Shown here: in pieces, positions 15,314 to 35,657 of the stretch
How positions within the stretch are numbered: position 1 is the stretch's first letter
Layout of the letters: each line of letters begins with the position of its first letter
Assembly: GCA_964612745.1 (NCBI GenBank)
Contig: CAZTCH010000007.1
Span: forward strand, 1,327-65,326
DNA: 64,000 nt
Direction of reading: 5' to 3'
DNA from: an uncultured Candidatus Saccharibacteria bacterium
GTDB lineage: Bacteria > Patescibacteriota > Doudnabacteria > UBA920
Translations under genes and position numbers: made by a program
The notes under the pieces: model-generated
What the model was told of the DNA's origin: nothing
Database searches by the model: none
The model's input: the letters and a program-made list of their open reading frames with translations, nothing else

Positions 15314-15359
15314 TGGATATATAAATAAAATACTTAGTAATAACAATAAGAACGGTGGA

Positions 15360-21400: not shown

Positions 21401-24400
21401 ACCACTTCCTTTTGCGTCAATGGTTATGTTTTCGTTTGTTCCCGAAGATATGGCTGCAAGAGCAACTCCACCAGCGGCAGCGGCAGAAGTAATCTTAAGT
21501 CCAGTTGCAGCAGATGCAGTAACTGTGTCTACTTGCAGTGCATAGTTAGTACCTGCTTTGGCTACGGTTAAAGCAGTTGCAGAGCTCACTGTTGTAGTAG
21601 TGACACCGGTGTTGGTTATGCCAACCACAGCGGCAATCGCACCAGAAGAGTTTACTTGGAAGAGGTCGCCAGAACCTACGGTTAATGCAGATGCAGGGGA
21701 GTTATCACCAATACCCACATTGCCACCAGTTGTGATGCGTAAGTCAGAGGTAGTACCGCCACCAGAAAGGCTAAGTCCTCCTGTGGCTGCTGATATGGCA
21801 AATTCTGAGCTGGATTGAATTGCAATACCTGCTCCACCGGTTGGGAACAGAGTTGCACTTACGAGCCTAGGGGTAAGTGTTATTGCTTGTGAATGGGCGC
21901 CAGTTGCTTTTATACGAACTTGTCCATCTGACGTATTATCTACTGCAAAGATGCTGTCTCCAGAGTTATATACATCCAAAAGTGCTGTTGGTGCTGTTGT
22001 CCCAATGCCTACGTTTCCACCCGCAAAGATTGCAGCGTAGTTTGTGTCTGCTCCGGTAGGGGACTCCACATAGAGACCTGTGTTGGTAGAAGTACCATCT
22101 GTGTCATATGTACCGTTTGCAATGTATAAACCGTATCCATTTACAGTTCCACCAGCACCAACGTCCGCAGAAGGTTTTACATATGCTCCGTATACATTTG
22201 TAGTGCCACCGGTAGACTCTGCACCAGCTGTTGGTTGTAATCTTGCACCGTACACATTTCTTGTTCCAGAAGTGATAATACCAGTGGCGGTAGATGCAAT
22301 ATCAATTCCAACTGCTGTATCTGCAGTGGTAGAAGAAGTACTTATGTTTAAATACTGACCAATTCCAGTTTTAGCAGCGTTGCCACTGAGTGCGATATCG
22401 GAGTAGTTACCATAGACTGTGTTTGCGAGTGCGGTGGCGTCGGTAACAGTGTTGTATATGCTATACGCTGTATCTGCGTTTGTAGTATTAGCGTTGGCAA
22501 ATGAGTTGTAGAGCCCATATGCAGTGCCAGAAGCAGTAGAAGTAGTGGTTGTTCCGGTGAACTTTGCCAATGCTTTTCCGTTAGCGATTGTTGCATTTAC
22601 AACGTCTAACTTTGCGTCTGGGGAGGTGTTGTTGATACCGACATTACCACCTGAAGATATATCAAACAATACAGTTCCTGAGCTGTTTTGGGCTTGGAAA
22701 AGATCAGATGTTTGTGAACCATTACCTTTAGCAACCACAGGGATGACCCGGGCTGATCCTGATTCAAAGAAGCCGGCATAACCCACAGGTGCGCTCGCTG
22801 TGGTAGAAGCAGTGGAGTAAATTCCATAAGGGGTTCCACCGTTTGTTCCTGCGGTGTTTCTAGTTTGCGTTGCCGAGAATCTACCCGCGGTAATATCATA
22901 ATTGTCGAACCCGGAGCTTAAGGTTGCTGTGAGTCCTCTCATTGAGCTATTGGCGAATGTGGTTGAAGCGTCTGTGTTCGTAAAGCTTATTCCATTTGAT
23001 TGCCCACTGGTAAATGAGGCATTTATTAGATTTCCTACTCCTGCACCTTTGGTGATGCTAATAACGTCAGAATTTGTTCCGTGACTAATTGATATTGCAG
23101 GTTGTGCTGTTGTGGTTTCGGTAATTGCCAACTTACCTGTTGGTGATGTTGCACCAACCCCCACGTTGCCATTTTCAAATATCGCAGCGTAGTTGTTGGT
23201 GGCACCAGTTGCAGTTGCGTATAAACCAACATTCGTAGTAGCTGCACCAGTGTTGCTAAAGTATCCAGCGTAGTCAGTGCCAGATGTCGCTCCTGTTTGA
23301 GAAACATTCAATGTTTTGTTTGCGCTACCTGTTGCGGAAGAGGCTAAGGTGGCTATGTCTCCACTGTTTCCAGATATAGAAATGACATCATTTGAAGTTG
23401 TTGGCTGCAAAGTCGTGCCAGTTCTAGACCAGTAACCCAAAGCACCGCTCGTTGGAGCGGTAGAGGTAAGGTTTTTAGATCCGTCGGTGTACACAATTCC
23501 TGAAGCGCTTAACCCCGAGAAGTTAATTGTTCCAGAAGAAGTAATACCAGTTGCAGCAGCAATTGCACCAGAAGAGTTTACTTGGAAGAGGTCGCCAGAG
23601 CCTACGGTTAAAGCAGCAGCAGGGGAGGTGTCGCCAATGCCGAGCCCTGTTGCATTTACTGTAACCCTGTCAGAGTTACCTGTTCTTAAATAAATTGGTT
23701 GCCCTGAAGCAGCGTTTAGGATGGTTACCCCACCAGAGCTTTGGTTGAGTGCCGAGTTAGCTGCTGATTCTGCTAAAGTTCCGTTTTGGAATGAAATATA
23801 TGAATTATCCCATGTTGGTGGTCCAACAATTCCACGCACAGTCCCTGAACTGGTAAAGTTCATCGCTCCTTCTACTGTTAACGCTTTTGTTGGTGTGGCA
23901 ATACCAATACCAACGCTACCATTCATAAATGCGGCGGCGTATTCGGTGCCAGCGCCGGTGCCAGCATCTACGTAGAGGCCGTATGCAGTAGATGAGGCGT
24001 CGTTGTTGGCGATTGTAATGTGGTCGCCGTATACGGTGTGCGACTGGCCAGCATCTGTGTCTACTGTTACGGTTGTTTTATTGCCATATACAGTTAGTCC
24101 TGCTGCTGCGTCTTGTACGGTGCCGGTAAGTGCCATGCCTAGTACTGCGGTGTCCGTAATAGTGTTGCTCGTTACTTGAATTGTTCCTGCGGTTTGTGTG
24201 GAGCCGGAAGAACTAATAACTATTCCTTGTATGTCTGCGGTCGCAGAGTTAGAAATGGTGAGTGAATCCCCAGCAGTGTCTGGTGCGATTGTTGTTTTGC
24301 CGTCGCTGTCTACGTCGAAGTCTGCAAGGTCAATGTTGCCGTCGCCGTTTAAGCTGTTGGCCACAAAAGCAAATGGAGCGGCTACAAATTGCTTGCGAGG

Positions 24401-24823
24401 AGACATTTCTCCGTCGTAGCTTGTGCCAGTTGGAGCAAAGTTTACAGAGAGGTACAGGCTGCCGGTGGTAAAGTCTACTCCGGTCAGTGCGTTACATGAG
24501 CCTAGTTTTGCATTGAACACAGCATTGGTCACAACCAGCTTTGCGCAGTCGCCACTTGCTTGGTCAAAAGTTTCTGTCCAGAGCAGGGACCCACTGGTTA
24601 GTGCGTCGTATAGTTTAAATTCAAAAGCGTAGCTGCCATTTGCAACGTTGGTGCCATCACTCGTTTTCGTAAGTTTTCCTTGGAAGTTTACAATTTTAGG
24701 GATTGTAGCACTCGCTTGCTGTGGGTTTGCGGCAAAAGAACTGAACACAACACAAACCAAAGTAACGTACACGAGGGTACGTCTCAGGTTTTTTACCTTA
24801 GTTAAAAAGATATTTTGGTTCAC
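18461..24823 (-). CDS. Giant secreted repetitive surface protein, Gly/Thr/Ser/Ala-rich with beta-helix / tail-fiber-like repeats
   Basis: 2120 aa. The N-terminal signal peptide is LVYVTLVCVVFSSFAANPQQASA. The motif NYAAIF-GGNVGIGTT-P--KL-V recurs at least 8 times. Apparent GTG start. All plus-strand ORFs inside this span are low-complexity antisense artefacts. Confidence 0.85.
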   Translation of the reverse strand: MNQNIFLTKVKNLRRTLVYVTLVCVVFSSFAANPQQASATIPKIVNFQGKLTKTSDGTNVANGSYAFEFKLYDALTSGSLLWTETFDQASGDCAKLVVTNAVFNAKLGSCNALTGVDFTTGSLYLSVNFAPTGTSYDGEMSPRKQFVAAPFAFVANSLNGDGNIDLADFDVDSDGKTTIAPDTAGDSLTISNSATADIQGIVISSSGSTQTAGTIQVTSNTITDTAVLGMALTGTVQDAAAGLTVYGNKTTVTVDTDAGQSHTVYGDHITIANNDASSTAYGLYVDAGTGAGTEYAAAFMNGSVGIGIATPTKALTVEGAMNFTSSGTVRGIVGPPTWDNSYISFQNGTLAESAANSALNQSSGGVTILNAASGQPIYLRTGNSDRVTVNATGLGIGDTSPAAALTVGSGDLFQVNSSGAIAAATGITSSGTINFSGLSASGIVYTDGSKNLTSTAPTSGALGYWSRTGTTLQPTTSNDVISISGNSGDIATLASSATGSANKTLNVSQTGATSGTDYAGYFSNTGAATTNVGLYATATGATNNYAAIFENGNVGVGATSPTGKLAITETTTAQPAISISHGTNSDVISITKGAGVGNLINASFTSGQSNGISFTNTDASTTFANSSMRGLTATLSSGFDNYDITAGRFSATQTRNTAGTNGGTPYGIYSTASTTASAPVGYAGFFESGSARVIPVVAKGNGSQTSDLFQAQNSSGTVLFDISSGGNVGINNTSPDAKLDVVNATIANGKALAKFTGTTTTSTASGTAYGLYNSFANANTTNADTAYSIYNTVTDATALANTVYGNYSDIALSGNAAKTGIGQYLNISTSSTTADTAVGIDIASTATGIITSGTRNVYGARLQPTAGAESTGGTTNVYGAYVKPSADVGAGGTVNGYGLYIANGTYDTDGTSTNTGLYVESPTGADTNYAAIFAGGNVGIGTTAPTALLDVYNSGDSIFAVDNTSDGQVRIKATGAHSQAITLTPRLVSATLFPTGGAGIAIQSSSEFAISAATGGLSLSGGGTTSDLRITTGGNVGIGDNSPASALTVGSGDLFQVNSSGAIAAVVGITNTGVTTTTVSSATALTVAKAGTNYALQVDTVTASAATGLKITSAAAAGGVALAAISSGTNENITIDAKGSGTVSIGASSTGDVLLGGGSGSTGCTVTNSTGAFACTAGGSFTTLGLTGAVTGATSYNGLVITANTGVITSGTWNGTALTDAYVSDTLTASLFTGSGSTTTAVDLGTAEVAGTLAVGNGGTGATSLTDLITLGTHTTGNYVTSITNGSGISGGNGGSEGAALTLALGALSADWSQTGAFDITLNNAASELKILESAGGAFYGIFDVTDLSADRTMTVPDASGTLITTGNLSSITTVGTISSGTWNGTAISSTYGGTGINTSGSTGVPYITGGTWSVDATALAANHGGTGQSSYTTGDILYASSSSALSKLAGVATGSVLVSGGVGVAPAWSTAITVTTSVTSATINATSALQLGGASINTAGTLSNVAYKNAANTFTANNIFQPTVTNGTGASAGVQIAANSLTSGNGVDISSTSLSTGNLTAISSSSTAGGISGSSTLLNLARTGANGSTGHTAYGLYSTVTNTNVTSGTNVAAYLSASGATTANYGLLVAAGNVGIGTTTPPAKLTIEDGGSDSSNYGAIQIVKAATGHTGSHISFIRAASSVVGLGYKQTSNIFGFGAGTTGAFDPTYLAIDTTTGNITVGSSAAATAGLDLVSTVTTGTAQKITTSSLTTGAGLNIVGPTSTGITGTGILRVTSDVGASGTGGYLAGFNPDYSSGTAASSYGIVISGTDSTNVANSNNNFYSGITLSGNAAKNAYAGYFTVSSSSTTADTTTAGLFNSSITGAISTGTRQVWGIYSGPSTSGANTGGTTQVFGGYFAPSSTGSTTGSTVNVYGNYIANAATLTTGGTINSYGIYIANGSMNTTGTSTQYGLYVDTQSGADTNYGAYIGGFVGIGTSAPVSQLHVVANTASNTSGLRLDSNSSNGTNLQLYNNNSTGVSKFIRVMSDSSLQVINSAYSAALLTLTDGGNMGIGMSPTYKLDVSGDIRTSGTFRGTCNVDPAFSDFDCADYAEIYDSVAPVAAGEVLAVSSVGGESRKI

Positions 24824-24937: not shown

Positions 24938-25138
24938 TTAAGCCGCTGTAATTTGGGTTTCTGTCTGGAAAAGGCTTACTAAGCTTTGCTTGGTAAAACG
25001 ACGATCCCGTCTTGAACCGATACGAATAGCTTCTAGTTTACCCATACGCTCCCAATTTCGGAGAGTGTTGGCGTGAACATGAAGGATCTGACAAGCCTCT
25101 TTGAGGGTTAGAAGCTCAGGAATCTGATTCTCTTGCAT
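24938..25138 (-). CDS. Excisionase/AlpA-family HTH DNA-binding protein
   Basis: MQENQIPELLTLKEACQILHVHANTLRNWERMGKL is the Xis/MerR-like HTH_17 pattern. The ORF-track start is a GTG at 25159; the ATG at 25138 is preferred. Confidence 0.6.
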   Translation of the reverse strand: MQENQIPELLTLKEACQILHVHANTLRNWERMGKLEAIRIGSRRDRRFTKQSLVSLFQTETQITAA

Positions 25139-25156
25139 TGTGTTTTTGTTTTTTAC

Positions 25157-25189
25157 CACAGATGCACAGATTTCTCAGATTACACAGAT
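25157..25189. promoter_or_regulatory. Direct heptamer repeats of CACAGAT (three full copies plus a partial) upstream of the Xis-like gene
   Basis: The sequence cacagatgcacagatttctcagattacacagat was seen directly. It resembles an iteron or operator. Confidence 0.4.
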
Positions 25190-25603
25190 ATTCCTACTAC
25201 TTTTTGGTAGTAAGTTGCATCCGTAGTATCTGTAAATTGGTGTACCGGTGGCTTATTTAATTTTGTTTTAGTTTTGGTTTCTTTTGTAAAGATGTTGTTG
25301 GGTTACAAATTTTGGTAACACAACTTAACAAAACCTGTATTTATAGTACCATAAGTTATAAACAGGGTCAAAGGTTTTTAAATAGATAGAATGTAGCTCA
25401 GAGATTGTTGTGTGTATCCAATTTCCTTTGCACTTAAGCGATTATTATGGTTTACTTGTTTTGGCCGGTGTACAGCTTGTGCGTTCGTTGTGGATAACTA
25501 TTCCGGAAAAGTGGATAACTTGTGAGTATTTTTTGCCAGCTCTGTTCATAGAAACTAAAAAAACCACCGGTTGGTGGTTTTTGGTTGGTCCTGTACCTTT
25601 TTG

Positions 25604-26608
25604 TTAACTGTTTTTTCGTTTTACCGTTTTCTTTATCAGAACATATACTACGATAAAAATAAAGGTACTTAATATGAGGAGGAAGCCTAGTACTAAACTG
25701 AGGAGCTCCCATGGTATAACCCAGAAGCTAGCGGTAGCTTTTGTCTGTTTTTGGGTGGAGTCGCCGTAAGTAAGCGTTAAGTTGGCGGTGTAGCGCCCAA
25801 GTGCAAAGTTGTTAAACTCATGTTTTACTGCGTTCCAAAACCCTTTGGGTGTATTTTCTGGCCTTTGTGCGTCTTTTGCTTGCACTTCTCCTTTTGTGTT
25901 GAGCCAAGAAGCTTCAAACCGGCGGATGGAGCGGGGGAGTACGTTGCTCCCGTCTGGGTTTGCGGTTACTATTTGGCTTGTTCCGCCGAACATGTTGTGT
26001 ATAACAATATCTCCGAGTGGTTTTACCCACGAAGCGCCTTCGTTTTGGAATCTGTAAAAGAAATCCACGGGTAAAGCACGGAAAAAGCGAGCATCTTTTG
26101 TTTTAAACTCCAGAATATCTGCACCTTCAAGGAAATTTCCATTTACTTGGGTAAGTAACAGGGTTCCTACTTGCGCTTCTACTGCGACATCACCAGCATT
26201 TTCTGGGGTTTCGCCTACGGTGCTAGCTAGTGCAGCAGCAAAGTAGCCTCCTGGTTCTGCATTTGCTGGTATGGTCACTGTGAACCCCACCTTTTTTCGC
26301 TCTAGAGGGCCAAACGACAACATGTCTTGGTCTAAAGTTATCCATTGGCTCAAGCCTTTTTTTTCTAAAACAAACTTTGGTTGGCCGCTTTCGTCCTTGC
26401 TTTCGAAATCTGCAATAGAAATTTGGTAGACTCTGGGTTTTCGCGCGTCGTTGTACAGTTCAAATTCACCAGAGATAGTTTGTCCTGGGTTTGCTGCAAG
26501 TTCTAGCCTAATTGGGGAAGCGGTTAACGCTGCTGCTGTCTGGGGAAGGCTAGTGACAAGGAGGATAAGGGTGGTTAGGCCCAGTATTGTTTTGTTTACG
26601 TTCCGCAT
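25604..26608 (-). CDS. DUF916/DUF3324-like cell-surface protein (signal peptide plus a C-terminal TM anchor)
   Basis: Signal peptide, then SPIRLELAANPGQTISGEFELYN (DUF916-like). A C-terminal TM helix is followed by the basic tail KKTVKRKNS. 334 aa. Confidence 0.6.
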   Translation of the reverse strand: MRNVNKTILGLTTLILLVTSLPQTAAALTASPIRLELAANPGQTISGEFELYNDARKPRVYQISIADFESKDESGQPKFVLEKKGLSQWITLDQDMLSFGPLERKKVGFTVTIPANAEPGGYFAAALASTVGETPENAGDVAVEAQVGTLLLTQVNGNFLEGADILEFKTKDARFFRALPVDFFYRFQNEGASWVKPLGDIVIHNMFGGTSQIVTANPDGSNVLPRSIRRFEASWLNTKGEVQAKDAQRPENTPKGFWNAVKHEFNNFALGRYTANLTLTYGDSTQKQTKATASFWVIPWELLSLVLGFLLILSTFIFIVVYVLIKKTVKRKNS

Positions 26609-26609
26609 G

Positions 26610-27530
26610 TTATCGAAGTTCTTGTGAAATTATCCATCTGTTGTACTTCTTTGTACCACTATATAACATAATACCAATAAATATCCCCAAAAGGCTAATT
26701 TTTGCCAAATCTAGTATGGGCCAGACCCAAATAGTGGCTTTTTGCCTTGTTTCCAAGGTGGGATTGTTCGAATAGTAAAGTATGGTTTCCACCGTGTACA
26801 TACCGGCGAGCCATTTTTGTGCCTTGGTGGTAAATGTTTTTTCTTCTGTGGGTAGCAGATGCAATGCGTTTTGGTTAATAGGTAGAGACTCGACTAGTCT
26901 TCCAAATACGTTGTAAATGTTTTGTTTTCCTTTTGGTGTGAGGTGCACGTTTCCAGTGTTTTTGAGTAATACAGACGAAGTGTAAGGTTTGTTAACGAAA
27001 TGGGTATCGTTTTTTGAAGTGGTATTGAGCTGGGGTTTGCTGGCTCCGTAGTCTACAAGCAGCAATGTACCTAATTTCCTTGAGACAACGATCGCATTTT
27101 CCTTTGCATCTTCAAAAGAAAAAAGGATGGCTGCGTAGTGTCCACCAGCTGTCGCGTCTGCCGGTGGGGATATTTCAAATTTTACTGTTGTGCTCCCTTT
27201 GGCGGGAATAATAAATTCTGGCTGCTGGGTAATTTTTACCCAAGAGCTCATGGAGTAGCTGTTGTTTATTTGCTCATTTGTTGCAAGAAATCGTGGTTCT
27301 CCAGCTGGGCCGACTGGGATAAAGTCTTGGATGGCATAACTAAGTGTGTGGTCAGTCGTGTCAGTGTTGAACACGGTAATGGTTTTGGTAATGCTTTGCC
27401 CCGGTTCTACTACCGCGTCAATTAAGAATGGTGAAATAGACAAACTTCCTTCGGAAAGTTGCTCTGCGGCGGACACTGTTCCCATAGAAGCAACAAAAAG
27501 TGCAAAAACGAGAGTAATTAGTTTTTTCAT
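26610..27530 (-). CDS. DUF916/DUF3324-like cell-surface protein, paralog
   Basis: Signal peptide, then SPFLIDAVVEPGQSITKTITVFN, then a C-terminal TM with a basic tail. 306 aa. Its start is coupled to the neighbour's stop. Confidence 0.6.
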   Translation of the reverse strand: MKKLITLVFALFVASMGTVSAAEQLSEGSLSISPFLIDAVVEPGQSITKTITVFNTDTTDHTLSYAIQDFIPVGPAGEPRFLATNEQINNSYSMSSWVKITQQPEFIIPAKGSTTVKFEISPPADATAGGHYAAILFSFEDAKENAIVVSRKLGTLLLVDYGASKPQLNTTSKNDTHFVNKPYTSSVLLKNTGNVHLTPKGKQNIYNVFGRLVESLPINQNALHLLPTEEKTFTTKAQKWLAGMYTVETILYYSNNPTLETRQKATIWVWPILDLAKISLLGIFIGIMLYSGTKKYNRWIISQELR

Positions 27531-27568
27531 GGTTTAGGTACTATTGTCCGATTACGAGGCTGCCGGGG

Positions 27569-28690
27569 TTAGTATTGAGCAGTGGTAATATACGTAACTG
27601 TGTTGGTGTACTGGCCTGCGGCTTGCCCAGTGCCAATTTCTAGCTTGTAGCTGACAGTTGTTTCTTCGCTTGTTGCAGGTCCAGTGGAGCAGGCAACTTC
27701 GTAGTTTCCGGTGTCCAGCGCTGCCCATGTGTTGTTTGTAGAAAAACGGCTTGTTGTGCCGGTGCAGAGTGACTCATCGCTACTATGGTAGCCAAAGGCC
27801 CCAGTGGTAATACTCCCAGGCCAAGTTGCTGGCGTGCTGTTGGTGCCGCTGACTGGGCTAATAGTTTCGCTGCCGCCGTCTCTGGTGAGTGCTTGGTTCT
27901 GCCGAATGGTAGTGGTGTATCCCGCCGAGGCGTTTGTGGTGACGGTAATTTTATGAGCAGCAATTGCTGGGACGTTGACCCCTAATTGACCATAGGCGAT
28001 AGCATTTGCTGTGGTGGTAATAGTAGTGGTTTCGCCGTCGAACAAGGTGCCAGATCCAATCCCAGAAAAGGTAATACTCAGGCTTGCTCCTACCGTTGCA
28101 GCGGTGGCTGTGTTGGAGAACCCAGTTTCGGTGTTGGTGCCATACCGTGCTTTCACTTTTATTTTATACGTAGTACTGGCGGTAAGGCCAGTAACTCGCC
28201 CACCACTGCCACCACCCCATGCGGTGTAGCTTTGCCAAGCTGCTGTTGTTCCTACCGTGTTATCTACTTGAATATAGTTTGTTGTGACAAAATCGTCGCT
28301 AGAAATTGCAATGGCGTAATTTGTATCTGTTTGTTGGCCGTCGCCTGTGGTAATAACGTAGTCCAGTGCGTTGTATAGGCTACCACCAGTATTTGTGAGT
28401 GTAGGTGTAGCAGGGACACCTGGGAAAGCATGCTGGAAAAAGCCTGGGAATATGGAATAGTTTCCTGAGGCTGTACTGCTGTCGTTAGAGTCGCCAATAC
28501 CATCTCTGCTGGCGTAATTGGTAGAGCTAGAAGCACCACCACCGCTGTCTAGGCTTGGGTTTTCTATTTGGTAATTGCTGCCACTCAATGTTTCTGCCTG
28601 TGCTATTGGGGCAAACACAAGACTGCACAAGGCACAGAGCCATACGAGTTGTTTTACAATCTGTAGCTGCATATACAGTAAGTTTACCAC
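27569..28690 (-). CDS. Secreted Thr/Gly-rich protein with an Fn3-like domain and a WxL-like C-terminus in which Trp is replaced by Tyr
   Basis: It has a signal peptide. STTYKIKVKARYGTNTETGFS is Fn3-like. The C-terminus GQYTNTVTYITTAQY aligns to the WxL consensus G-x-Y-x-x-x-L-T-W-x-L with W replaced by Y. 373 aa. Confidence 0.55.
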   Translation of the reverse strand: MVNLLYMQLQIVKQLVWLCALCSLVFAPIAQAETLSGSNYQIENPSLDSGGGASSSTNYASRDGIGDSNDSSTASGNYSIFPGFFQHAFPGVPATPTLTNTGGSLYNALDYVITTGDGQQTDTNYAIAISSDDFVTTNYIQVDNTVGTTAAWQSYTAWGGGSGGRVTGLTASTTYKIKVKARYGTNTETGFSNTATAATVGASLSITFSGIGSGTLFDGETTTITTTANAIAYGQLGVNVPAIAAHKITVTTNASAGYTTTIRQNQALTRDGGSETISPVSGTNSTPATWPGSITTGAFGYHSSDESLCTGTTSRFSTNNTWAALDTGNYEVACSTGPATSEETTVSYKLEIGTGQAAGQYTNTVTYITTAQY

Positions 28691-28702
28691 GGGCTTGTTT
28701 GC

Positions 28703-29731
28703 TTATCCGATCTCTCGCCTTCTTTTTTCCCTGGCAATAATATATTTATTGTATTGCTTGAGAGCGAGCCGGAGAATGAGCAGTGCCACAATCCCAGATG
28801 GGATAACAACTGCCAGTAATTCCCAAGGGATAATCCAAAACGAGGTTGTTATTTGGGCACGATTTTGGTTTTGTGATCCGTATGTCAGTGTTAGTCTTGC
28901 TTTGTACCATCCAATAGGCGCATATGTTGCTTGATGTTGTACTTTGGCGAAAAAGGTATTTGGTGCTGACGGCGGTGGTTGGTTTTGTGGGTTCTCTGTG
29001 TCGCCACTCTTGGTGAGCCATGAGGCAGTATACTTGCGAATTGACTTTGGTAATACATTGCCACCAGTCGGGTTCGCTGGGATGATCTTCTTTGTTTTAC
29101 CCCACGCATTCTCTATTACAACATCACCGAGTGGTTTGGCCCAATCTTCGCCATTGTTTTGAAAACGGTAGAAAAAGTCCACTGGTAGGGTGGAAAAAAA
29201 CTTTCGGTTTTGCGCAGTGGAAAATTCTAAAATATCAGCGCCTTCTGTAAAGTCACCAGAGACCCTAAGGAGTACGAGCATGCCAATTTGGCTGCCAATC
29301 GCAACACCGTCTGCTTCGGCTGCTATCTGCGGTGGTTCGTTTCTGAGTAGGATGGCGGCAAAATGCCCCCCAGCATCGGCGTCTGTTGGTACGGAAAGCA
29401 GCACGGTGATTTTTTGTCGTTCACTTGGGCCAAGGGTTATGTCGCTTGGGCCAGAAAACCACTGCGAAATGCCTTCTTTTTGCCGGCTTAAGACAGGGTT
29501 ACCGCTCTCATCTTTGGCATTAAAAGTTTGGTAGTCCAAGTAATAGACTTTTGACTCTTTTTGGTCGTTGTAGGCATCAAAGGTGATTGTGAGAATGCTT
29601 CCGGCAGAAGCAGTGAGCTCTGTTTTAACGGGGGAGACTGTTATGGCTTGTGTTGGGGTGGTATTTGCCCAAAATGCTAAAAGTATCCCACAAACGAGTA
29701 GTGAGTATATGTGTTTTGGTTGTGTGAACAA
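28703..29731 (-). CDS. DUF916/DUF3324-like cell-surface protein, third paralog
   Basis: Signal peptide, then SPVKTELTASAGSILTITFDAYN, then a C-terminal TM with the tail KQYNKYIIAREKRRREIG. 342 aa. Confidence 0.6.
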   Translation of the reverse strand: MFTQPKHIYSLLVCGILLAFWANTTPTQAITVSPVKTELTASAGSILTITFDAYNDQKESKVYYLDYQTFNAKDESGNPVLSRQKEGISQWFSGPSDITLGPSERQKITVLLSVPTDADAGGHFAAILLRNEPPQIAAEADGVAIGSQIGMLVLLRVSGDFTEGADILEFSTAQNRKFFSTLPVDFFYRFQNNGEDWAKPLGDVVIENAWGKTKKIIPANPTGGNVLPKSIRKYTASWLTKSGDTENPQNQPPPSAPNTFFAKVQHQATYAPIGWYKARLTLTYGSQNQNRAQITTSFWIIPWELLAVVIPSGIVALLILRLALKQYNKYIIAREKRRREIG

Positions 29732-29820
29732 AGCGTTTTTGTAGGGTTACTTCGAAAATAATTATACACCATTCAGAGGTGAATGGTGTATAGATTGGTT
29801 GTAAAACAGTTTTTGTGAGT

Positions 29821-30924
29821 TTAGAAATTCCCTGTTGCGATGTACGTCAAGGTGGTAGAATAGCTACCTGCTTCAGTGAGTGTGGAAATGTTAGCTAGAT
29901 AGGAAACGCTTAAAGTTTCTGTTGCAGTCGGTACTGTTTCAGAGACAATAGTGGTTGCGGTGCTGGCAACAAAGTTCCAGCTACTGTTTGTCCCACGTGC
30001 GTACCCAGAAGCTACAGTTGCGTCGCCACTCGCGCTGACCGACAATGCAAATTGTTCGCTACCTGTTGTACCGTCACTATCGGTGGTAATGCTTGCTGCG
30101 GTAATAGTGTTGCCTCCACTGGTGAGTGTAGCACCGAAATACGTTACACTGTACCCGCTCTGAGCGTTTGTACCAACTGTTAAGGTGTGTGCTGCTGTCG
30201 GGGTGTTGCCAGCTGTGGCGTTGCCACCAACGGCGTCTCCTGTAGCCCAGCGACCAGTGCTAGAAGACAGAGTGCCAAACCCAATAGTGTTGTCGTCTAC
30301 AGTAAATGTGATAGATGGAGCGACTGTAGCGCTAATACTGACTTGGTCGTCGGTAATAATGTCATATGAAAGAGTGCCGCTGTCACCAAATGTACCACCC
30401 ACAGTTAAGGTGTCGTCATCATCTGCTGCGCCATTGCTAATTTGGTTGGTTCCAGCAACACCTGTGCTGGCGTGTGTACCAATTTTAATGCGTACACAAC
30501 GGCTTGCGGTTACTGTACCAGTTCCAGAAGTAATGGTGACTACTTGGCCAGATGCTCCAATGCCCCACGTTGCCCCACTGGGGGAGCCAGCGAGTGTTTG
30601 TTCTGTGTACGATGCAGTTGTACATGTGGCGCTATCGCCTGTAGCAAAGTCAACATCCCCGAACACTATACTGCTTACCCCAGTAAAATCAGCAGAAAAT
30701 GTTAGGGTTATGTCTTGCCCAGCAGTAACACCTGTAGGGGTAACAAAAAATATTGTGTGGTTTGCCGCAGTGCTCGCTTTTAATCTGCTGAGAGTGTCGG
30801 AGAATGAAGTTATTGCAGCAGCTTGTGCTACTTGGATGTTTGGTAGTAATAAGGCAAGAGAGACTATAACAACCAGAATGTGTTTTAGTCTTTTTTTGAG
30901 TGCGGTTGGGATAACGTTTCGCAT
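29821..30924 (-). CDS. Secreted Thr/Gly-rich protein with a WxL-like (YxI-variant) C-terminus
   Basis: Signal peptide. The C-terminus EAGSYSTTLTYIATGNF matches that of the 373-aa protein. SSWNFV is a candidate first motif. 367 aa. Confidence 0.55.
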   Translation of the reverse strand: MRNVIPTALKKRLKHILVVIVSLALLLPNIQVAQAAAITSFSDTLSRLKASTAANHTIFFVTPTGVTAGQDITLTFSADFTGVSSIVFGDVDFATGDSATCTTASYTEQTLAGSPSGATWGIGASGQVVTITSGTGTVTASRCVRIKIGTHASTGVAGTNQISNGAADDDDTLTVGGTFGDSGTLSYDIITDDQVSISATVAPSITFTVDDNTIGFGTLSSSTGRWATGDAVGGNATAGNTPTAAHTLTVGTNAQSGYSVTYFGATLTSGGNTITAASITTDSDGTTGSEQFALSVSASGDATVASGYARGTNSSWNFVASTATTIVSETVPTATETLSVSYLANISTLTEAGSYSTTLTYIATGNF

Positions 30925-30981: not shown

Positions 30982-31926
30982 TCACTTTTCTTCTTGTTTG
31001 TACAGCAATCTTTTCCCTAGAATAATTACGAACAGTAGCAAGACTACTGAAATAAGTGAAAGCCACACGAGAGTAGGTTGATTCTGTCTGTTTCCTTTTG
31101 CAATTTTGCTTATTACCGTTTCATTACCAGACATGTCCACTGCTTTGAGGAATACCTTGATGTCTTTGTCTCCTTGGTTTTTGAGTTGGTATGGGGATCG
31201 TGTTCTTACCCAATCGGTTTCAGTAGGGTACTCTTTTTTTGCGTCTATTTCGGCAATCTCGTAGTATTGTATACCGCTTTCCACATCTTCTGCTTGAAAA
31301 GCCGCAAACCAATTGCCTGAGAAAAGTGTTTCATCCTTCCCAATGGCAAGCTCGAGGTGTATTGGGGGAGTGTTGTCTGGAGTATTTGCGAGAGGGGTTT
31401 CTACAGCTTTTTCTGTGGGTTTGCCAATATTGATTGTTATCGGGGTGTATTGGTGAGGGATAACGCTACCGAGTCCGTCATTTGCTAAGGCTTTTGTGTT
31501 TTCGGCATATGATATGGTTGCAGTTCCTTCTGCAAGTGCTTTAAAAGAGATAGAGAAGAGTTGGCCTTGTCTACCGGTGAAACCTGGTGTAGGTAATCCT
31601 CCAGTAAAGCTAATAACTCCAGAATTTTGGGCTTGGCTGGGTTTTGACTGCCAGTACGAGATAATTGAATTAGCCGTGCTGAGGCTTGTTACTGCAAGCA
31701 TCTTACTCGGATAGTTCACGCTTCCTTCGAGTGCATTTGCTGCCGTGGTTGTATTGAGGAATGCCGAAACGGTAAAGGTTTCACCTATTACAACAGCTTT
31801 TTTTGAGCTAAAAGTAAATGTGCTGTCACTTGCCAGTAGCGCCGATGGGGATACGCAGAAGAGTAGTACTACAACGGCAAGTAATTGTGTGGTTTTGTGT
31901 AAAGACATAGAGTGTTTGTTAGTCAT
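30982..31926 (-). CDS. Membrane-anchored protein with a cohesin-like beta-sandwich domain
   Basis: It has a signal peptide. GETFTVSAFLNTTTAANALEGSVNYPSKMLAV...GQLFSISFKALAEGTATISY follows the cohesin pattern. The C-terminal TM is LVWLSLISVVLLLFVIILG followed by KR. 314 aa. Confidence 0.5.
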   Translation of the reverse strand: MTNKHSMSLHKTTQLLAVVVLLFCVSPSALLASDSTFTFSSKKAVVIGETFTVSAFLNTTTAANALEGSVNYPSKMLAVTSLSTANSIISYWQSKPSQAQNSGVISFTGGLPTPGFTGRQGQLFSISFKALAEGTATISYAENTKALANDGLGSVIPHQYTPITINIGKPTEKAVETPLANTPDNTPPIHLELAIGKDETLFSGNWFAAFQAEDVESGIQYYEIAEIDAKKEYPTETDWVRTRSPYQLKNQGDKDIKVFLKAVDMSGNETVISKIAKGNRQNQPTLVWLSLISVVLLLFVIILGKRLLYKQEEK

Positions 31927-33412
31927 TCCACCAGTAGAGAAGGATGCTAAAGTCTACTAAGTTTACTATTTTATCTTTATTTATATCTGCAAGTGTTGTG
32001 CCACTTTTCTGCCAGTAGTACATGAGAATGCTCAGATCTGTCAGATTTACTTTGGTATCACAGTTTAGATCTGCTGGAATACTTGCACATTGCAAGCCGA
32101 CTTTTTTGCTACCCAGAATAGCAAGATTTCCAATAGTGTTCAGTGGTATTTGGAATTGGTTTGATTTATTCAGTAGTGGTTGTATTGGCGTGATATTCCA
32201 GCGATTTTCTGGTGCAAAGAAAGCATTTCCCCATTCTGGGGTAAACACACTCACTTGTTGTGGGGTATACACCAGAGTCGCAGTAAGGGCTTGTTTGGGG
32301 TAGCGCACTACTCTACCAGTGGCGTCTTGGATAAAAATTCCGAAGAGTACATCTGCGATGGCGAATTTATTTGGGGCACCAGTTTTATTTGGAAACCCAG
32401 ACCATGAAAGACACGTTAGGGAGAGCTGGCTTTGGTCTGGAATGCTACCAGCGGGGATGTGTAGTTGTATATATGCCCCATTTTGGCACGCAATACCGTA
32501 CACACCGCTCAGTGTGGCGTCTATGACTGTAGCGTTTGCACTAGGGAGTAATACAACGCCGGTGTTACTTTGTGTGTGAGAAATAGTATATATTTCTTCG
32601 ACAATCCCACTAGCTGTGTAATCGGTCTTAGCTGCCAAAGCTTTCAGGGTTGTAGTTTCGGTGAAAGTGAGAGGGGTAGTATATACGGAGCTACTTATGG
32701 TGGGGTTACTGCCGTCAGTTGTATAATAAATGGTTGCTCCACTTGTTGCGCTGGTAATGCTTACCGTTACTGTGTTTTCAAACAACGCTGTCGTAGGGTT
32801 CATGACAGGGCTTGCTACCGTACCAAGGGTGCCAACGAGAGAACTAATACCAACAGGGTCAGTGATGGCTATGGATACTTCACCTGAGTCGATAAGTGCG
32901 TCTAGGCTTGTACTCGTAGCGATATTGAGAGAATATGTCCCAATACTGCTAGGATTGGTTATGTCTTGGTCTCCAGCGCTTTGAAATGTGGCGTTACTAC
33001 CAATTTCGATTACTATAGTGCTTCCAGCACTGATGGGGTCAGTGTCGTTCAAGGTGAATTGGATGCTGCCACTGCTTCCAGATATGGCCTGAGCTCCTAT
33101 GCTACTTCCAGAGCCTGTGCCGGCGCTAGCGCTTAAAGACGCGTCAGTAGCGTTAATCTCGAGGTCTAAGTCTTCATGGTTTAGGCTGGGGATGGTAAAA
33201 GCGCTGCTTTGTGGAGTAATGGTGATTTTGCCACCCGCTGGTATTTCTGTGGGGTTGGTAAAAGTAATTCGATGTCTTGCTGGTTCTGACTTTGCTGAAG
33301 TACTTATTCTGTCACTTCTGTTGGTGAGTGTGGCAGCTTGTGTGTTTGTGCTCTGGTGCAAAACCCACAACAATCCAGTTGCAAGCACGAGAAGTGCGCA
33401 TAGTTTTTTCAT
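31919..33412 (-). CDS. Secreted protein with an Fn3-associated (chitobiase-C-like) domain and a C-terminal dockerin (two Ca-binding repeats)
   Basis: It has a signal peptide. GATIYYTTDGSNPTISSSVYTTPLTFTETTTLKALA is an Fn3_assoc-type segment. The C-terminus DLNCDTKVNLTDLSIL...ADINKDKIVNLVDFSILL gives two dockerin repeats. 497 aa. Confidence 0.65.
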   Translation of the reverse strand: MKKLCALLVLATGLLWVLHQSTNTQAATLTNRSDRISTSAKSEPARHRITFTNPTEIPAGGKITITPQSSAFTIPSLNHEDLDLEINATDASLSASAGTGSGSSIGAQAISGSSGSIQFTLNDTDPISAGSTIVIEIGSNATFQSAGDQDITNPSSIGTYSLNIATSTSLDALIDSGEVSIAITDPVGISSLVGTLGTVASPVMNPTTALFENTVTVSITSATSGATIYYTTDGSNPTISSSVYTTPLTFTETTTLKALAAKTDYTASGIVEEIYTISHTQSNTGVVLLPSANATVIDATLSGVYGIACQNGAYIQLHIPAGSIPDQSQLSLTCLSWSGFPNKTGAPNKFAIADVLFGIFIQDATGRVVRYPKQALTATLVYTPQQVSVFTPEWGNAFFAPENRWNITPIQPLLNKSNQFQIPLNTIGNLAILGSKKVGLQCASIPADLNCDTKVNLTDLSILMYYWQKSGTTLADINKDKIVNLVDFSILLYWWND

Positions 33413-33421: not shown

Positions 33422-33790
33422 TTAGGCTTTTAAAAGCGTTCTTGCTCGTCTTTGGTCAAGGTAAAAGTTGGTCACTATTAAACCAAAGAGAGTGGTAATT
33501 GCAATAGCGAGCAGCCACTGTCTCGATGTCTCCGTTTGGTTTTGGTATCGTTGTTGTGCGTCGAGTTGTTGTGCTCGTTTTTCTAAAACCTGCTTTTCTT
33601 CTTGTAGTTGTTGGTAGAGGGTGTTTTCTGGAGTAGGGTCAACGGTCCCACCAACTGCAATCCCGGCAACAGTGCCAATTGGGCCTGTTTGTTCGACGGT
33701 GTATGCGTCTATTGCCGGTAGAACCAGCATAAGGCAGGCGCACGCGCTGAGTAAGAGTGTATAGGTACCAGTGAGAAAAGAGATTTTCAT
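33422..33790 (-). CDS. Small membrane protein with a coiled-coil (N- and C-terminal hydrophobic segments)
   Basis: 122 aa. It has a signal/TM at the N-terminus, a Gln/Glu-rich coiled-coil in the middle, and a C-terminal TM. Confidence 0.45.
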   Translation of the reverse strand: MKISFLTGTYTLLLSACACLMLVLPAIDAYTVEQTGPIGTVAGIAVGGTVDPTPENTLYQQLQEEKQVLEKRAQQLDAQQRYQNQTETSRQWLLAIAITTLFGLIVTNFYLDQRRARTLLKA

Positions 33791-33942
33791 ATAAGGTAGA
33801 TCTTTCTGTAAGTATTATACAACCTTTTTGGACTGTCTTGGCCGGTTGACCAATTTGTTTTTTTTCAGTATACTTATCCCAGCAATGTTATTTGCGCCCT
33901 AGTTTTCTGCAGGGTTTTCCAGTATTAATATTCATTCATAAA

Positions 33943-34083
33943 ATGAAGCGAACATACCAACCAAAAGTTAAAAAGCGTTTAAAGACGCATGGTTTTCGCG
34001 CCCGAATGAAAACAGTTACGGGGCAGGCAGTTATTGCCCGCAGACGGGCAAAGGGGCGAAAGAGACTGTCTATTAGCGAATAG
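33943..34083 (+). CDS. rpmH: 50S ribosomal protein L34
   Basis: [46 protein letters not shown]. The ORF-track start lies upstream of the true ATG. Confidence 0.95.
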
Positions 34084-34139
34084 CTTTAGATCGGCAAGCT
34101 TATAAAGCTAAAGCTTTATAAGCTTTTATTTTATACACT

Positions 34140-34484
34140 ATGTTTTCTCGGGAGAACCGTTTAGCGCAAGATGGTGATATTCAGAGGGTCTTACGAACAG
34201 GTCGTAAGTTTTTTTGCCCTCTTTTTACTATTCGGTGGCGTGAGGTGCACAATACTGTCACACCTCCTCGGTTTGCGGTCGTGGTGTCTACGAAGGTGGC
34301 GAAACGGGCGGTAAAGCGGAATCGACTACGTAGGATTACTCGTGAATTATTGCGTAAAAACCTGCGAAGTATACACTCTGCAGACTATATGATCATCTTA
34401 CGCCCTGAGGTCCTTAAGGTGCCCGAGGCGCAATATCTGCAAACACTTGCTGGGGCATTTGAAAAGGCGAAACTGTTGGTATAG
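34140..34484 (+). CDS. rnpA: Ribonuclease P protein component
   Basis: A 114-aa basic protein containing the RnpA motif RLRRITRELLR. It sits in the conserved rpmH-rnpA order. Confidence 0.9.
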   Translation: MFSRENRLAQDGDIQRVLRTGRKFFCPLFTIRWREVHNTVTPPRFAVVVSTKVAKRAVKRNRLRRITRELLRKNLRSIHSADYMIILRPEVLKVPEAQYLQTLAGAFEKAKLLV

Positions 34485-34560
34485 TGTAAGTATTTCTCAT
34501 AAAAAGTGCTTTGAGCACTTTTTTGTTTATCCACAGAATCTGGTACACTACCTGAGTAAT

Positions 34561-34791
34561 ATGCGATATTTACTTGCCGGAATCATTGTATTGTACCAGC
34601 GCACGATATCCTTAGATCATGGATTGTTTCGGGGTTTGTACCCGCATGGGTATTGTAGGCATTTTCCTACATGTAGTGAATACGCACGGCAATCGATTCT
34701 AAAGTACGGTGTTTTTCGAGGTGTGGGGAAATCTACTTTGCGCGTCTTACAGTGCCATCCTTTTGCTAAGCCGTCTGTTGATTTACCATAA
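34561..34791 (+). CDS. yidD: Membrane protein insertion efficiency factor YidD
   Basis: The ATG at 34561 gives MRYLLAGIIVLYQRTISLDHG...CRHFPTCSEYARQSILKYG, which is the YidD signature. Confidence 0.85.
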   Translation: MRYLLAGIIVLYQRTISLDHGLFRGLYPHGYCRHFPTCSEYARQSILKYGVFRGVGKSTLRVLQCHPFAKPSVDLP

Positions 34792-35625: not shown

Positions 35626-35657
35626 TTGGTTATTGGTAAAATATTAAAGCAAGCCAT

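Follow-up and report, generated by a model that had tools for sequence, protein, structure and literature searches.

An eight-gene operon on the minus strand, running from position 33790 to 25604 of the window (the whole 64,000-nucleotide stretch of DNA that was analysed), probably constitutes a Pam-type pilus locus, Pam pili being surface filaments described only recently from ultra-small CPR bacteria. By analogy with Ca. Mycosynbacter amalyticus, the most likely function of its products is that of a donor-strand-exchange pilus. A preliminary description had seen a WxL/DUF916-type surface locus, and it was half right, because the genes are best read as a Pam pilus operon, yet its helper proteins are DUF916/WxLIP relatives. 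The five consecutive minus-strand genes on which that description was based (B2, A3, B1, A2 and A1) were all found as ORFs at the same coordinates, each with a hydrophobic signal-like segment at the N-terminus of its product. The features of the locus are as follows:

33422..33790, minus strand: g122, small protein with hydrophobic segments 3-32 and 91-112, heading the tightly packed operon
31919..33412, minus strand: g497, secreted protein with a pilin-like N-domain, a CHB_HEX_C/Fn3_assoc domain and a C-terminal dockerin
30982..31926, minus strand: g314, signal peptide, cohesin-like beta-sandwich, second Ig-like domain, C-terminal membrane helix and basic tail
29821..30924, minus strand: B2 (367 aa), major pilin candidate (Pam pilin)
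29763..29792, minus strand: terminator-like hairpin directly 3' of B2 (13-bp stem, U-rich tail), from a sequence scan
28703..29731, minus strand: A3 (342 aa), membrane-anchored WxLIP-like two-domain protein, candidate pilin chaperone
27569..28690, minus strand: B1 (373 aa), minor or tip pilin candidate
26610..27530, minus strand: A2 (306 aa), divergent membrane-anchored WxLIP-like protein, candidate second chaperone type
25604..26608, minus strand: A1 (334 aa), membrane-anchored WxLIP-like protein, structure-modelled here
25559..25582, minus strand: intrinsic-terminator-like hairpin from the scan (10-bp stem, then a run of T), 22 bp past the A1 stop and the probable end of the operon

The first gene, g122, lies 9 bp upstream of g497; its product gave no significant family match in profile searches, and it occupies the same position in two related loci, L002 (93% identity) and L005 (38%). 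The operon is adjoined by a gene for a very large Thr/Gly-rich secreted protein.

The pilin candidates B2 and B1

B2 belongs to the Pam pilins: it matched the NCBIfam model NF058581 (CPR_Pam_pilin_C, "Pam pilus system pilin subunit") with 72.2 bits (E 4.7e-20), above the curated cut-off of 55 bits, and the same model was matched by 57/57 of its relatives. Over 1000 homologues of B2 were found, and every named one is from the CPR. The AF2 model (pLDDT 93.1) comprises two beta domains with an unstructured linker between them, namely an N-terminal beta-sandwich (residues ~35-190) and the C-terminal Pam pilin domain (residues 234-367, window 29824-30225). The linker holds a conserved strand, QVSISATVAPS (residues ~193-204, window 30313-30348), and conservation within the family is highest there and at the C-terminus; Cys101 and Cys143 are near-invariant.

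B1 shares with B2 the C-terminal ~150-200 aa (28% identity, E 8e-7) and, by its sequence, is a sub-threshold relative with a PamT-like N-terminus. It scored 26.9 bits against NF058581, under the cut-off of 55, yet was aligned over positions 2-148 of the 148 in the model. Its N-terminus matched NF058579 (PamT) at E 2e-8 (34 bits, far under the cut-off of 240), and such a match was found in six of the eight proteins scanned, namely in B1 itself and in five out of seven orthologues (E 1e-7 to 6e-11). B1 is made up of a PamT-like N-terminal region of ~80 aa, an FN3 insert (residues ~95-190; FN3-like match in PDB at E 0.007) and a divergent Pam pilin C-domain (227-373), and carries a linker-like strand, TAATVGASLSITF. 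Met7 is the more probable translation start, as the protein collection has no exact entry for the 373-aa form.

Both proteins are Thr/Gly-rich, as described previously (T 17-18.5%, G 10.6-11.3%), acidic (pI 4.4-4.5, with 8.8-9.1 for the basic A proteins) and end directly in a beta-strand, without a membrane helix. This ending also speaks against a sortase-assembled pilus of the Gram-positive type. No LPXTG-like motif is present in any protein of the locus, in agreement with the preliminary description, no ORF of the window has a C-terminal LPXTG, and the TLxTC sortase motif is absent from the window; sortase assembly is effectively refuted by this absence of sorting signals.

The membrane-anchored A proteins and the WxL reading

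A1, A2 and A3 are homologues of the DUF916/WxLIP proteins of Firmicutes. They are paralogs (46% identity between A1 and A3, E 1e-92, and 26% between A1 and A2 across their whole length, E 7e-20; A3 against the A-family profile, E 3.3e-118), and each has a hydrophobic C-terminal helix (297-326 in A3, 267-293 in A2) followed by a K/R-rich tail. The N-domain motif once ascribed to all three is PGQ...DF in A1 and A2, but AGS...TF in A3. PF06030 (DUF916, WxLIP_PGBD) matched 42/97 members of the family (best E 2.7e-12); A2 itself remained under the cut-off of 27.3 (22 bits, E 1.8e-4), and precomputed PF06030 matches exist for several of its orthologues. In a search of 177,635 PDB sequences with the A-family profile, EfmWxLIP1 was the sole match at E < 0.01 (E 9e-4). 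Profile-profile alignment with Firmicutes WxLIPs (hhalign) gave a probability of 98.3% (E 1.2e-14), 96.4% after removal of the signal peptide and membrane helix, and 97.4% for the N-domain alone. The DUF916 half of the earlier DUF916/DUF3324 assignment is thereby upheld, while DUF3324 was undetectable by sequence.

In the A1 model (pLDDT 94.4), residues 28-155 and 163-297 each form a beta-sandwich domain and residues 300-333 the membrane helix, with a pLDDT dip to 77-86 at residues 131-150. Its best Foldseek matches, in PDB copies that yielded no Pam structures, were the Enterococcus WxLIPs 9i1y and 9i25 (E 1.2e-11, ~280 aligned columns, both domains), followed by RbmA (4kkp, E 3.5e-10) and then by the chaperone-usher chaperones CsuC, CfaA, Caf1M and FimC (with DraB, E 1e-9 to 1e-8, target-normalised TM 0.54-0.60). 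TM-scores were 0.37-0.42 for WxLIP and chaperone-usher chaperones and 0.24-0.26 for RbmA. By analogy with such chaperones, the flexible loop and last strand of domain 1 (residues ~131-155, window 26144-26218) are proposed as the donor strand of A1. Architecture and fold, rather than direct comparison, make the A proteins probable counterparts of PamC/PamD, as part of the Pam-pilus reading as a whole. The Pam pilus itself is already known, if only very recently; a link between its chaperones and WxLIP was not found in the literature.

In the WxL/Csc clusters of Lactobacillales and Bacillales, WxL-domain proteins are encoded together with a WxLIP, which comprises DUF916, DUF3324 and a membrane helix (Siezen 2006; Hassan & Williamson 2023, PMC10599100; PDB 9i1y, 9i25). 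The WxLIP is predicted to complete the open WxL beta-sandwich with a strand of its own, which is the same principle as donor-strand complementation by chaperones. The A proteins share with WxLIPs the domain order, C-terminal membrane helix and basic pI, along with the 98% profile-profile probability and the best match among solved structures. The partner subunits of the two systems are alike in being Thr-rich secreted proteins with multiple gene copies beside a WxLIP-type gene, the longer forms bearing extra N-terminal domains.

Such parallels are the basis of the alternative that B1 and B2 are divergent WxL proteins, bound non-covalently to peptidoglycan as monomers or small complexes and held by the A proteins, with no polymer formed. 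The A proteins are WxLIP homologues, and Firmicutes clusters have a parallel gene content, in which a single WxLIP accompanies a large adhesin and several genes for small subunits. The B C-termini previously read as the terminal WxL motif, GQYTNTVTYITTAQY and GSYSTTLTYIATGNF, are present and visibly resemble the second WxL motif of real WxL proteins (e.g. AQYNSTLTWELSSTP), of which one bona fide annotated example has Tyr at this place (ITYNL, L028:5032-5748); four co-linear motif blocks appeared in a low-stringency hhalign alignment. The resemblance is, however, statistically weak (a short C-terminal local hhalign match with P ~0.01, hhalign probability < 5%), and HMMER WxL scores of the C-termini were not in excess of those of shuffled sequences. 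The strings NTWAAL and SSWNFV, suggested as first motifs, do occur, but in the low-stringency alignment they were misaligned with the first WxL motif, whose better positional counterpart was TNAxSGY(S/T)(V/T)T. PF13731 (WxL) matched neither B1 and B2 nor any of the 57 B2 relatives, the B2-family profile matched no WxL chain in PDB by sequence, and no WxL structure was among the fold matches listed. B1 and B2 also lack Trp-x-Leu, the small LPXTG protein of WxL clusters is absent, and the A proteins lack the WxLIP motif NQIDKxxxYFDLK and a second domain detectable as DUF3324. Moreover, the organism belongs to the CPR and not to Firmicutes, and WxL proteins are described as peptidoglycan-bound and not as filaments, whereas B2 scores above the cut-off of the Pam pilin model, and filaments are formed by the nearest relatives of that model on which experiments have been done. 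With no PF13731 match and with B2 above the Pam pilin cut-off, a WxL-domain identity of B1 and B2 is unsupported, and a non-covalent peptidoglycan-bound complex is unlikely, being rated below a polymerised pilus.

Dockerin and cohesin partners and gene order in related loci

Residues ~8-197 of g497 matched the B2-family profile (E 1.9e-16) and are accompanied by a linker-like strand, GEVSIAITDPVG, without the pilin C-terminal domain. Pfam-type matches were CHB_HEX_C_1 (63 bits) and Dockerin_1 (27.5 bits, cut-off 22.9), the latter also present in 13/13 g497-related proteins from other loci. The neighbouring g314, with a hydrophobic segment at 282-310, fell just below the Cohesin cut-off (PF00963, 23.1 bits against 24.1, E 9.2e-5), and 10/24 of its relatives matched this model (best 1.7e-7). 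Relatives of g314 adjoin pilin and chaperone genes in 15/20 loci. A scan for the linker motif [VI][STA][IV][STA]A[TINVL][VI] found it in 13/37 pilin ORFs, each time at the linker, in 4/14 dockerin proteins, each time at the mature N-terminus ahead of a poly-Gly spacer, and in one of 986 other ORFs. This N-terminal occurrence of the pilin linker motif in dockerin proteins indicates coupling to a pilin acceptor domain. We propose g497 as a strand-donating terminator and anchor adaptor and g314 as the membrane anchor that binds its dockerin; recurring pairs of this kind may anchor the fibre base.

An A-family gene directly follows the B2 homologue in 20/20 related loci; L002 and L005 preserve the whole gene order, and L004, L006, L008 and L014 preserve part of it. 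The conserved cohesin-dockerin pair beside the cluster could also be taken to indicate a cellulosome-like, non-filamentous scaffold, in which cohesins and dockerins would assemble Ig-domain adhesins at the membrane, with the A proteins serving as structural Ig-domain anchors, like the RbmA matrix proteins, and not as chaperones. The match of A1 to RbmA fits this, as do the many adhesin-type Ig domains among the B2 matches listed. Nevertheless, the TM-scores of A1 are lower to RbmA than to WxLIP and chaperone-usher chaperones, the dockerin proteins bear the pilin linker motif, and the pilin-chaperone adjacency is universal among these loci, at least three of which (L004, L008 and L018), with sequence on both sides, have no adjacent dockerin/cohesin gene. 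A scaffold is therefore very unlikely.

Assembly model and comparison with known pili

The evidence argues strongly for a CPR/Patescibacteria pilus that is built by donor-strand exchange with the help of chaperones but without an usher. All operon products, having signal-peptide-like N-termini, would be exported by Sec, and A1, A2 and A3 would remain tethered to the cell membrane by the C-terminal helix, their basic tail lying inside and their two Ig-like domains facing outward. By analogy with PapD/FimC, and with WxLIP on WxL, they would fill the open groove of a pilin C-domain with the final strand of their first domain and so keep the pilin folded. The linker strand of the next pilin would then displace the chaperone strand, and therefore the fibre would grow from its base. 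B1, with its PamT-like N-terminus, FN3 domain and acceptor domain, would occupy the tip and B2 would be the repeating shaft subunit, while g497, which lacks an acceptor domain, would cap the proximal end and, through its dockerin and the cohesin of g314, tie the fibre to the cell. A host-attachment device, as suggested earlier, is a reasonable guess for a pilus and a WxL complex alike.

Pam pili consist of two-domain pilins joined via a donated linker strand; their chaperones are PapD/FimC-like and bear a C-terminal membrane helix, their terminator is RbmA-like and anchored in the membrane, and a trans-envelope machine is lacking; pam operons were reported near ATP synthase, with emphasis on Saccharimonadia and Microgenomatia (Troman et al. 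2026, bioRxiv 10.64898/2026.03.03.709456). The present locus resembles that of M. amalyticus in being a CPR-restricted operon for signal-peptide proteins, in its pilins, whose two domains are joined by a conserved linker and include the Pam pilin C-domain, and in its several membrane-anchored proteins, each with two Ig domains ahead of the C-terminal helix, which match RbmA and PapD/FimC-type chaperones. An usher or other envelope-spanning machine is likewise absent, and the very large Thr/Gly-rich neighbour possibly corresponds to the "tail fibre-like" one. It differs in having three chaperone-like paralogues, a tip candidate with an FN3 insert that fails the PamT equivalog cut-off, and dockerin and cohesin/membrane-helix proteins, which are unmentioned by Troman et al. 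Named relatives are mostly of Paceibacteria type (Nomurabacteria, Kerfeldbacteria, Paceibacterota) instead of Saccharimonadia/Microgenomatia, and the locus is situated between dnaA and rpmH; a motif search of the window revealed no ATP-synthase signature.

With chaperone-usher pili (Pap, Fim, Caf1, Csu, CFA/I) the locus shares the two-Ig-domain chaperone fold and, presumably, donor-strand complementation and exchange. However, it has neither an outer-membrane usher nor an outer membrane, the chaperones are membrane-tethered and not soluble, the proposed donated strand is an internal inter-domain linker and not an N-terminal extension, and sequence similarity is undetectable. In pap-type operons, a stem-loop follows the gene for the major subunit. 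Here, the B2-A3 spacer forms a hairpin in the MFE fold, and equivalent hairpins of different sequence follow the B2 homologue in L002, L004, L005, L008 and L018, so that terminator-like hairpins occur 3' of the pilin gene in six loci in all. The one after B2 is proposed to act as an attenuator or mRNA stabiliser, which would raise the pilin-to-chaperone ratio and leave pilin in excess.

Organization of the locus

On the family membership, folds, homology, synteny and shared motifs observed here, the locus is most likely a Pam-type pilus operon, best filed as a further example of the recently described kind of filament of Ca. Mycosynbacter amalyticus (Troman et al. 2026, bioRxiv 10.64898/2026.03.03.709456). 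It is a tightly packed unit of eight minus-strand genes (33790 to 25604), whose downstream portion encodes three paralogues with a C-terminal membrane helix (A1, A2 and A3) and two Thr/Gly-rich secreted proteins (B1 and B2). The preliminary description had read these five genes as a WxL/DUF916-type cell-surface complex. Its observations are confirmed: all five ORFs were found at 25604-30924, the C-termini quoted for the Thr/Gly-rich proteins are exact and an LPXTG-like motif is indeed absent; its interpretation proved half right. A sortase pilus was rejected, as motif searches found neither an LPXTG nor a TLxTC motif.

Features of the operon (position in the window, strand, description)
33422-33790, minus, g122, 9 bp upstream of g497
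31919-33412, minus, g497, upstream of g314 with an 8-bp overlap
30982-31926, minus, g314, 57 bp upstream of B2
29821-30924, minus, B2, 367 aa
29763-29792, minus, second strong hairpin, directly after B2
28703-29731, minus, A3, 342 aa
27569-28690, minus, B1, 373 aa
26610-27530, minus, A2, 306 aa
25604-26608, minus, A1, 334 aa
25559-25582, minus, terminator-like hairpin after A1

All five proteins (5/5) begin with a hydrophobic signal-like segment. A1, A2 and A3 are basic and end in a hydrophobic helix followed by a Lys/Arg-rich tail, while B1 and B2 are acidic and Thr/Gly-rich. A1 shares 46% identity with A3 and 26% with A2 (full length, E 7e-20); B1 and B2 resemble each other in the C-terminal portion alone (28% identity, E 8e-7). 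In six loci the major pilin gene is followed by a terminator-like hairpin, and these hairpins differ in sequence without sign of relatedness.

The operon is located in the replication-origin region, enclosed by recF-dnaN-dnaA (12971-16975) and, at the opposite end, by rpmH, yidC and a jag-like R3H gene (33892-36128); the GC-skew changes sign near 16 kb. The same dnaA-rpmH interval encloses the gene of a giant secreted protein of 2120 aa (18461-24823, minus; 54% Thr/Gly/Ser/Ala, without a Pfam match), followed by a 411-aa ORF (17248-18483, minus). Homologues of the giant protein are encoded downstream of the pilus cluster in five of the comparison loci (L002, L004, L005, L006 and L014), and it may correspond to the "tail fibre-like protein" reported as a conserved neighbour of the pam operon (Troman et al. 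2026). Between its gene and the operon there is a gene for a 73-aa HTH_17/MerR-type DNA-binding protein (24938-25159, minus), which could be a local regulator; L004 has such a gene at the equivalent position. The window also encodes a PilB/GspE-type type IV pilus assembly ATPase (3011-4696, minus; E 5e-103 to PilB structures), and therefore the organism has type IV pilus machinery besides the Pam-type operon. A signature-motif search of the window found no ATP-synthase neighbourhood.

Pilin candidates and their conserved neighbours

B2 matches the NCBIfam model NF058581 ("Pam pilus system pilin subunit", covering the C-terminal Pam pilin domain) with 72.2 bits (E 4.7e-20), above the curated cut-off of 55 bits, and each of the 57 B2 relatives examined also matches this model (57/57). 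B1 aligns with the model from end to end at 26.9 bits, under the cut-off. Its N-terminus matches PamT (NF058579, an equivalog model with a cut-off of 240 bits) at 34 bits (E 2e-8), limited to the N-terminal 80 model positions and below the cut-off, and this match is repeated in 5 of 7 B1 orthologues (30-42 bits). An FN3-like insert separates the PamT-like N-terminus from the Pam-pilin-like C-terminal part; judged by sequence, B1 is at most a PamT-related protein with an additional FN3 domain. A Pfam search found no domain in B1 or B2, and PDB sequence searches (B1, B2, A2 and the B2-family profile) gave chance-level matches only, none to a Pam or WxL structure.

The AF2 model of B2 (pLDDT 93.1) contains an N-terminal beta-sandwich of about ten strands (residues 39-190) and a C-terminal beta domain of seven strands (205-365), joined by an unstructured, conserved linker (191-204). 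Conservation in the B2 family is highest in the linker (consensus DDQV.itATVdPtITF) and in the C-terminal strand (AGsYsTTiTYIATgtF), and two cysteines are nearly invariant. By the description in the preprint, this resembles PamA and PamB, two-domain pilins that donate the single strand between their domains to a neighbouring subunit, whose C-terminal domain is open; conservation peaks at the linker and at the site that binds it, and the cysteines form pairs (Troman et al. 2026).

Very large proteins (up to >2900 aa) ending in a Pam pilin C-terminal domain are encoded immediately upstream of the major pilin gene in four comparison loci (L009:1567-8748, L010:3-5750, L013:3-8783 and L017:8019-9800, the last scoring 84 bits with NF058581). 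These are probably tip adhesins, analogous to the "large WxL" proteins.

The neighbourhood was compared in 20 related loci taken from GTDB species representatives, and an A-family gene directly follows the B2 homologue in each of them (20/20). The gene order g122-g497-g314-B2-A-B1-A-A is whole in L002 and L005 and partial in L004, L006, L008 and L014. Homologues carrying names all belong to the CPR (Nomurabacteria, Paceibacterota, Kerfeldbacteria, Falkowbacteria and Saccharibacteria). Two loci titled "uncultured Gammaproteobacteria bacterium" (L015, CAYVOI010000001.1, 876 kb; and L018) hold a CPR-type pilin-chaperone-dockerin-cohesin cluster; this label is probably wrong, and many "Candidatus Saccharibacteria" titles in the same MAG series may be coarse too.

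Cellulosomes are the best-known setting of cohesin-dockerin pairs. In 14 of the 20 loci, a dockerin-bearing protein adjoins the pilin and chaperone genes, and in 13 of these it is accompanied by between one and three cohesin-like proteins that have a membrane helix. The pair was noted in the window (30982-33412) and in L003, L005, L010-L013, L015-L017 and L019-L021. The Dockerin_1 domain was detected in 13/13 dockerin proteins and Cohesin in 10/24 cohesin-like proteins. In the dockerin proteins of about 300 aa, the signal peptide is succeeded by a strand such as VTVSANV and then by a poly-Gly spacer. This strand shows the motif of the pilin linker, which occurs in 13/37 pilins, 4/14 dockerin proteins and 1/986 other ORFs. 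In the window, g497 has an entire pilin-like N-domain (E 1.9e-16, B2 profile) with a linker-like strand and lacks the acceptor domain; a CHB_HEX_C domain and then the dockerin follow. By analogy, the conserved cohesin-dockerin pair probably anchors the Pam-type fibre.

Chaperone candidates and the relation to WxL systems

The AF2 model of A1 (pLDDT 94.4) shows two beta-sandwich domains followed by a long helix at the C-terminus (residues 300-333), with a dip in confidence at residues 131-150, the loop ahead of the final strand in domain 1. The homology of A2 and A3 to A1 extends along their full length, and the transmembrane nature of the C-terminal helix is supported by hydropathy and by the A1 model. 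Among solved structures, the best Foldseek matches were 9i1y ("WxLIP from Enterococcus faecium") and 9i25 ("WxLIP bound to long WxL"), each with E 1.2e-11 over about 280 aligned columns, which covers both domains; next came RbmA (E 3.5e-10, TM 0.26) and then the chaperone-usher chaperones CsuC, CfaA, Caf1M, FimC and DraB.

The three paralogues had been proposed to be DUF916/DUF3324 proteins. For DUF916 (PF06030, WxLIP_PGBD; cut-off 27.3 bits) this holds as homology, and none of the three passes the Pfam cut-off singly: A2 reaches 22 bits, and no match was obtained for A1 or A3. The homology of the A family to WxLIP is supported because PF06030 is matched by 42 of 97 family members (E up to 0.01, best 2.7e-12), EfmWxLIP1 is the sole PDB match of the family profile at E < 0.01 (E 9e-4), and both structures and profile-profile alignments agree. 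The latter were made with hhalign against Firmicutes WxLIPs from Enterococcus, Listeria, Lactiplantibacillus, Lactococcus and Bacillus plasmid WxL clusters, and gave 98.3% (E 1.2e-14) for full-length proteins, 96.4% (E 1.3e-9) after removal of the signal peptide and membrane helix, and 97.4% (E 1.3e-11) for the first domain alone. For the second domain, sequence comparison gave no support for DUF3324 (PF11797, WxLIP_HBD, 0/97 members; hhalign 2.9%, P 0.015, not significant), and its relation to WxLIP is supported at the level of structure, by the Foldseek alignment. The conserved N-terminal WxLIP motif NQIDKxxxYFDLK (Hassan & Williamson 2023, PMC10599100) is missing in the A proteins, where the aligned stretches are SPIRLELAANPGQ, SPVKTELTASAGS and SPFLIDAVVEPGQ. 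The family comprises 19,461 representatives (clusters at 50% identity, E up to 1e-3) and matches no NCBIfam model.

In architecture and fold, the A proteins resemble the chaperones PamC (WP_260763277.1) and PamD (WP_260763284.1), described as having FimC/PapD-like folds and a C-terminal membrane helix (Troman et al. 2026). PamR of the same system (WP_260763282.1) is described as RbmA-like; it has two domains and a membrane helix, and donates its N-terminal strand (Troman et al. 2026). Among the proteins compared here, A1 matches RbmA, g314 combines two beta domains with a membrane helix, and the dockerin proteins carry a pilin-linker motif at the N-terminus. A distant A-family member (P0153, 287 aa) was noted in a Saccharibacteria MAG (L029:1288-4169, JAUNQR010000022.1), followed by a 638-aa secreted protein with pilin-C-domain-like motifs (ATITVAES..., ...TYTGKVKYTMVHP) in its N-terminal ~200 residues and a weak Fib_succ_major match at its C-terminus.

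The identification of the Thr-rich proteins as WxL proteins was not borne out: PF13731 (WxL) matches neither B1 nor B2 (E up to 1), nor any of the 57 B2 relatives, and B2 passes the Pam pilin model. Trp-x-Leu motifs are absent from both, their positional counterparts being GYSV/GYTT and TYIA/TYIT. The pilin C-terminal domain was compared with 10, then 25 real WxL domains from plasmids, by hhalign (local, global and low-mact modes) and by HMMER with shuffled and reversed controls, and reached significance in none of these. Against the 25 domains, only the last ~20 residues align (AGSYSTTLTYIAT with AxxYTTTLTWxL; P ~0.01, probability <5%). Low stringency extends this co-linearly over four blocks (ITFTVDDNTIGFG with LSIDYVSxxxFG, GTNAxSGYSVTY with RGTNxGWxLxV, TNSSWNF with GxGTW, and the C-terminal strand) without raising the score. 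As hhalign support is weak, HMMER scores of real sequences are not above those of shuffled ones and no WxL chain is among the matches listed for the B2 model, WxL homology of the pilin domain is graded as no more than suggestive.

The main rival reading is a WxL-like wall complex that does not polymerise. Genes of WxL proteins are clustered with one for WxLIP and, in most cases, with one for a small LPXTG protein; here, WxLIP homologues adjoin the B genes and the LPXTG protein is absent. Tyr in place of Trp is not disqualifying by itself, because two annotated proteins of an Enterococcus WxL cluster (sp. CR-Ec1, plasmid pCREc1, L028) have Tyr or Phe instead of the second Trp: a WxL-domain protein (L028:5032-5748, C-terminus ...AQYTTTITYNLTADP) and, beside it, a large BspA-family LRR protein (L028:6857-11335, C-terminus ...ETYTANITFDLRSAP). 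Set against the Pam pilin match of B2, such a complex appears improbable.

Proposed assembly and wider reading

For the preferred Pam-type pilus, strand identities, subunit order, anchoring and a role in host contact are proposed by analogy with the Pam preprint, chaperone-usher pili and the WxLIP-WxL pair. Filaments assembled by donor-strand exchange were described for the Pam system from cryo-EM (Troman et al. 2026), and WxLIP-WxL strand insertion is a prediction. All eight products would be exported by Sec. The membrane-tethered A proteins would use the final strand of domain 1 (around residues 140-155 in A1 and A3) to close the presumed open groove in the C-terminal domain of the pilin, and the linker strand of the incoming pilin (residues 193-204 in B2) would displace it, so that the fibre would grow from its base. 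B1 would form the tip and B2 the shaft, and growth would terminate at g497, since it can give a strand and cannot take one; its dockerin (residues 447-491) would bind the cohesin (residues 41-165) of membrane-anchored g314. The hairpin after B2 may raise the pilin-to-chaperone ratio. Judged by size and domain content, none of the eight products could be an outer-membrane usher of the kind that chaperone-usher pili have: all are too small, and none resembles a beta-barrel.

A large part of bacterial diversity belongs to the CPR, whose members live attached to other cells, and identification of their attachment organelles has only just begun. Pam-type pilus operons reach relatives named Nomurabacteria, Kerfeldbacteria and Paceibacterota. 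Added to the Pam preprint are the homology of the chaperones to Firmicutes WxLIP/DUF916 and the conserved cohesin-dockerin pair, neither of which was found in the literature searched; the preprint text does not mention WxL, DUF916 or DUF3324, and donor strands or pili are not discussed in the WxL literature searched. The role of WxLIP/DUF916 in WxL surface clusters is debated, and these clusters are linked to virulence and gut colonisation. If the WxLIP link is true, models of Pam assembly could draw on the solved WxLIP-WxL complex and, conversely, the structures of Pam filaments could hint at the product of WxL clusters.

Tentatively, and with somewhat more doubt than confidence, Pam pili and Firmicutes WxL/Csc complexes may be two offshoots of a single ancient system in which single-membrane bacteria used chaperone-assisted donor strands. 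In that case WxLIP (DUF916/DUF3324) would act as a pilin chaperone tethered to the membrane, and the WxL domain as a strand-deficient acceptor that shares ancestry with the C-terminal domain of Pam pilins, Trp-x-Leu being the counterpart of Tyr-x-Ile/Val; many CPR lineages would tie the fibre base by a cohesin-dockerin pair and not by a single PamR-type protein, and WxL proteins, too, might polymerise over short lengths by strand donation. In small WxL proteins (L022, L024-L028 and L031-L036), the mature chain opens with a short "G/A-x-I-x-F" strand, and a Pro/Asp-rich spacer leads from there to the WxL domain. This start is reminiscent of the N-terminal extension by which chaperone-usher pilins donate a strand, and the "G-x-I-x-F" strand with its Pro-rich spacer looks like a donor extension. 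Many WxL clusters contain two or three small WxL genes and one WxLIP gene.
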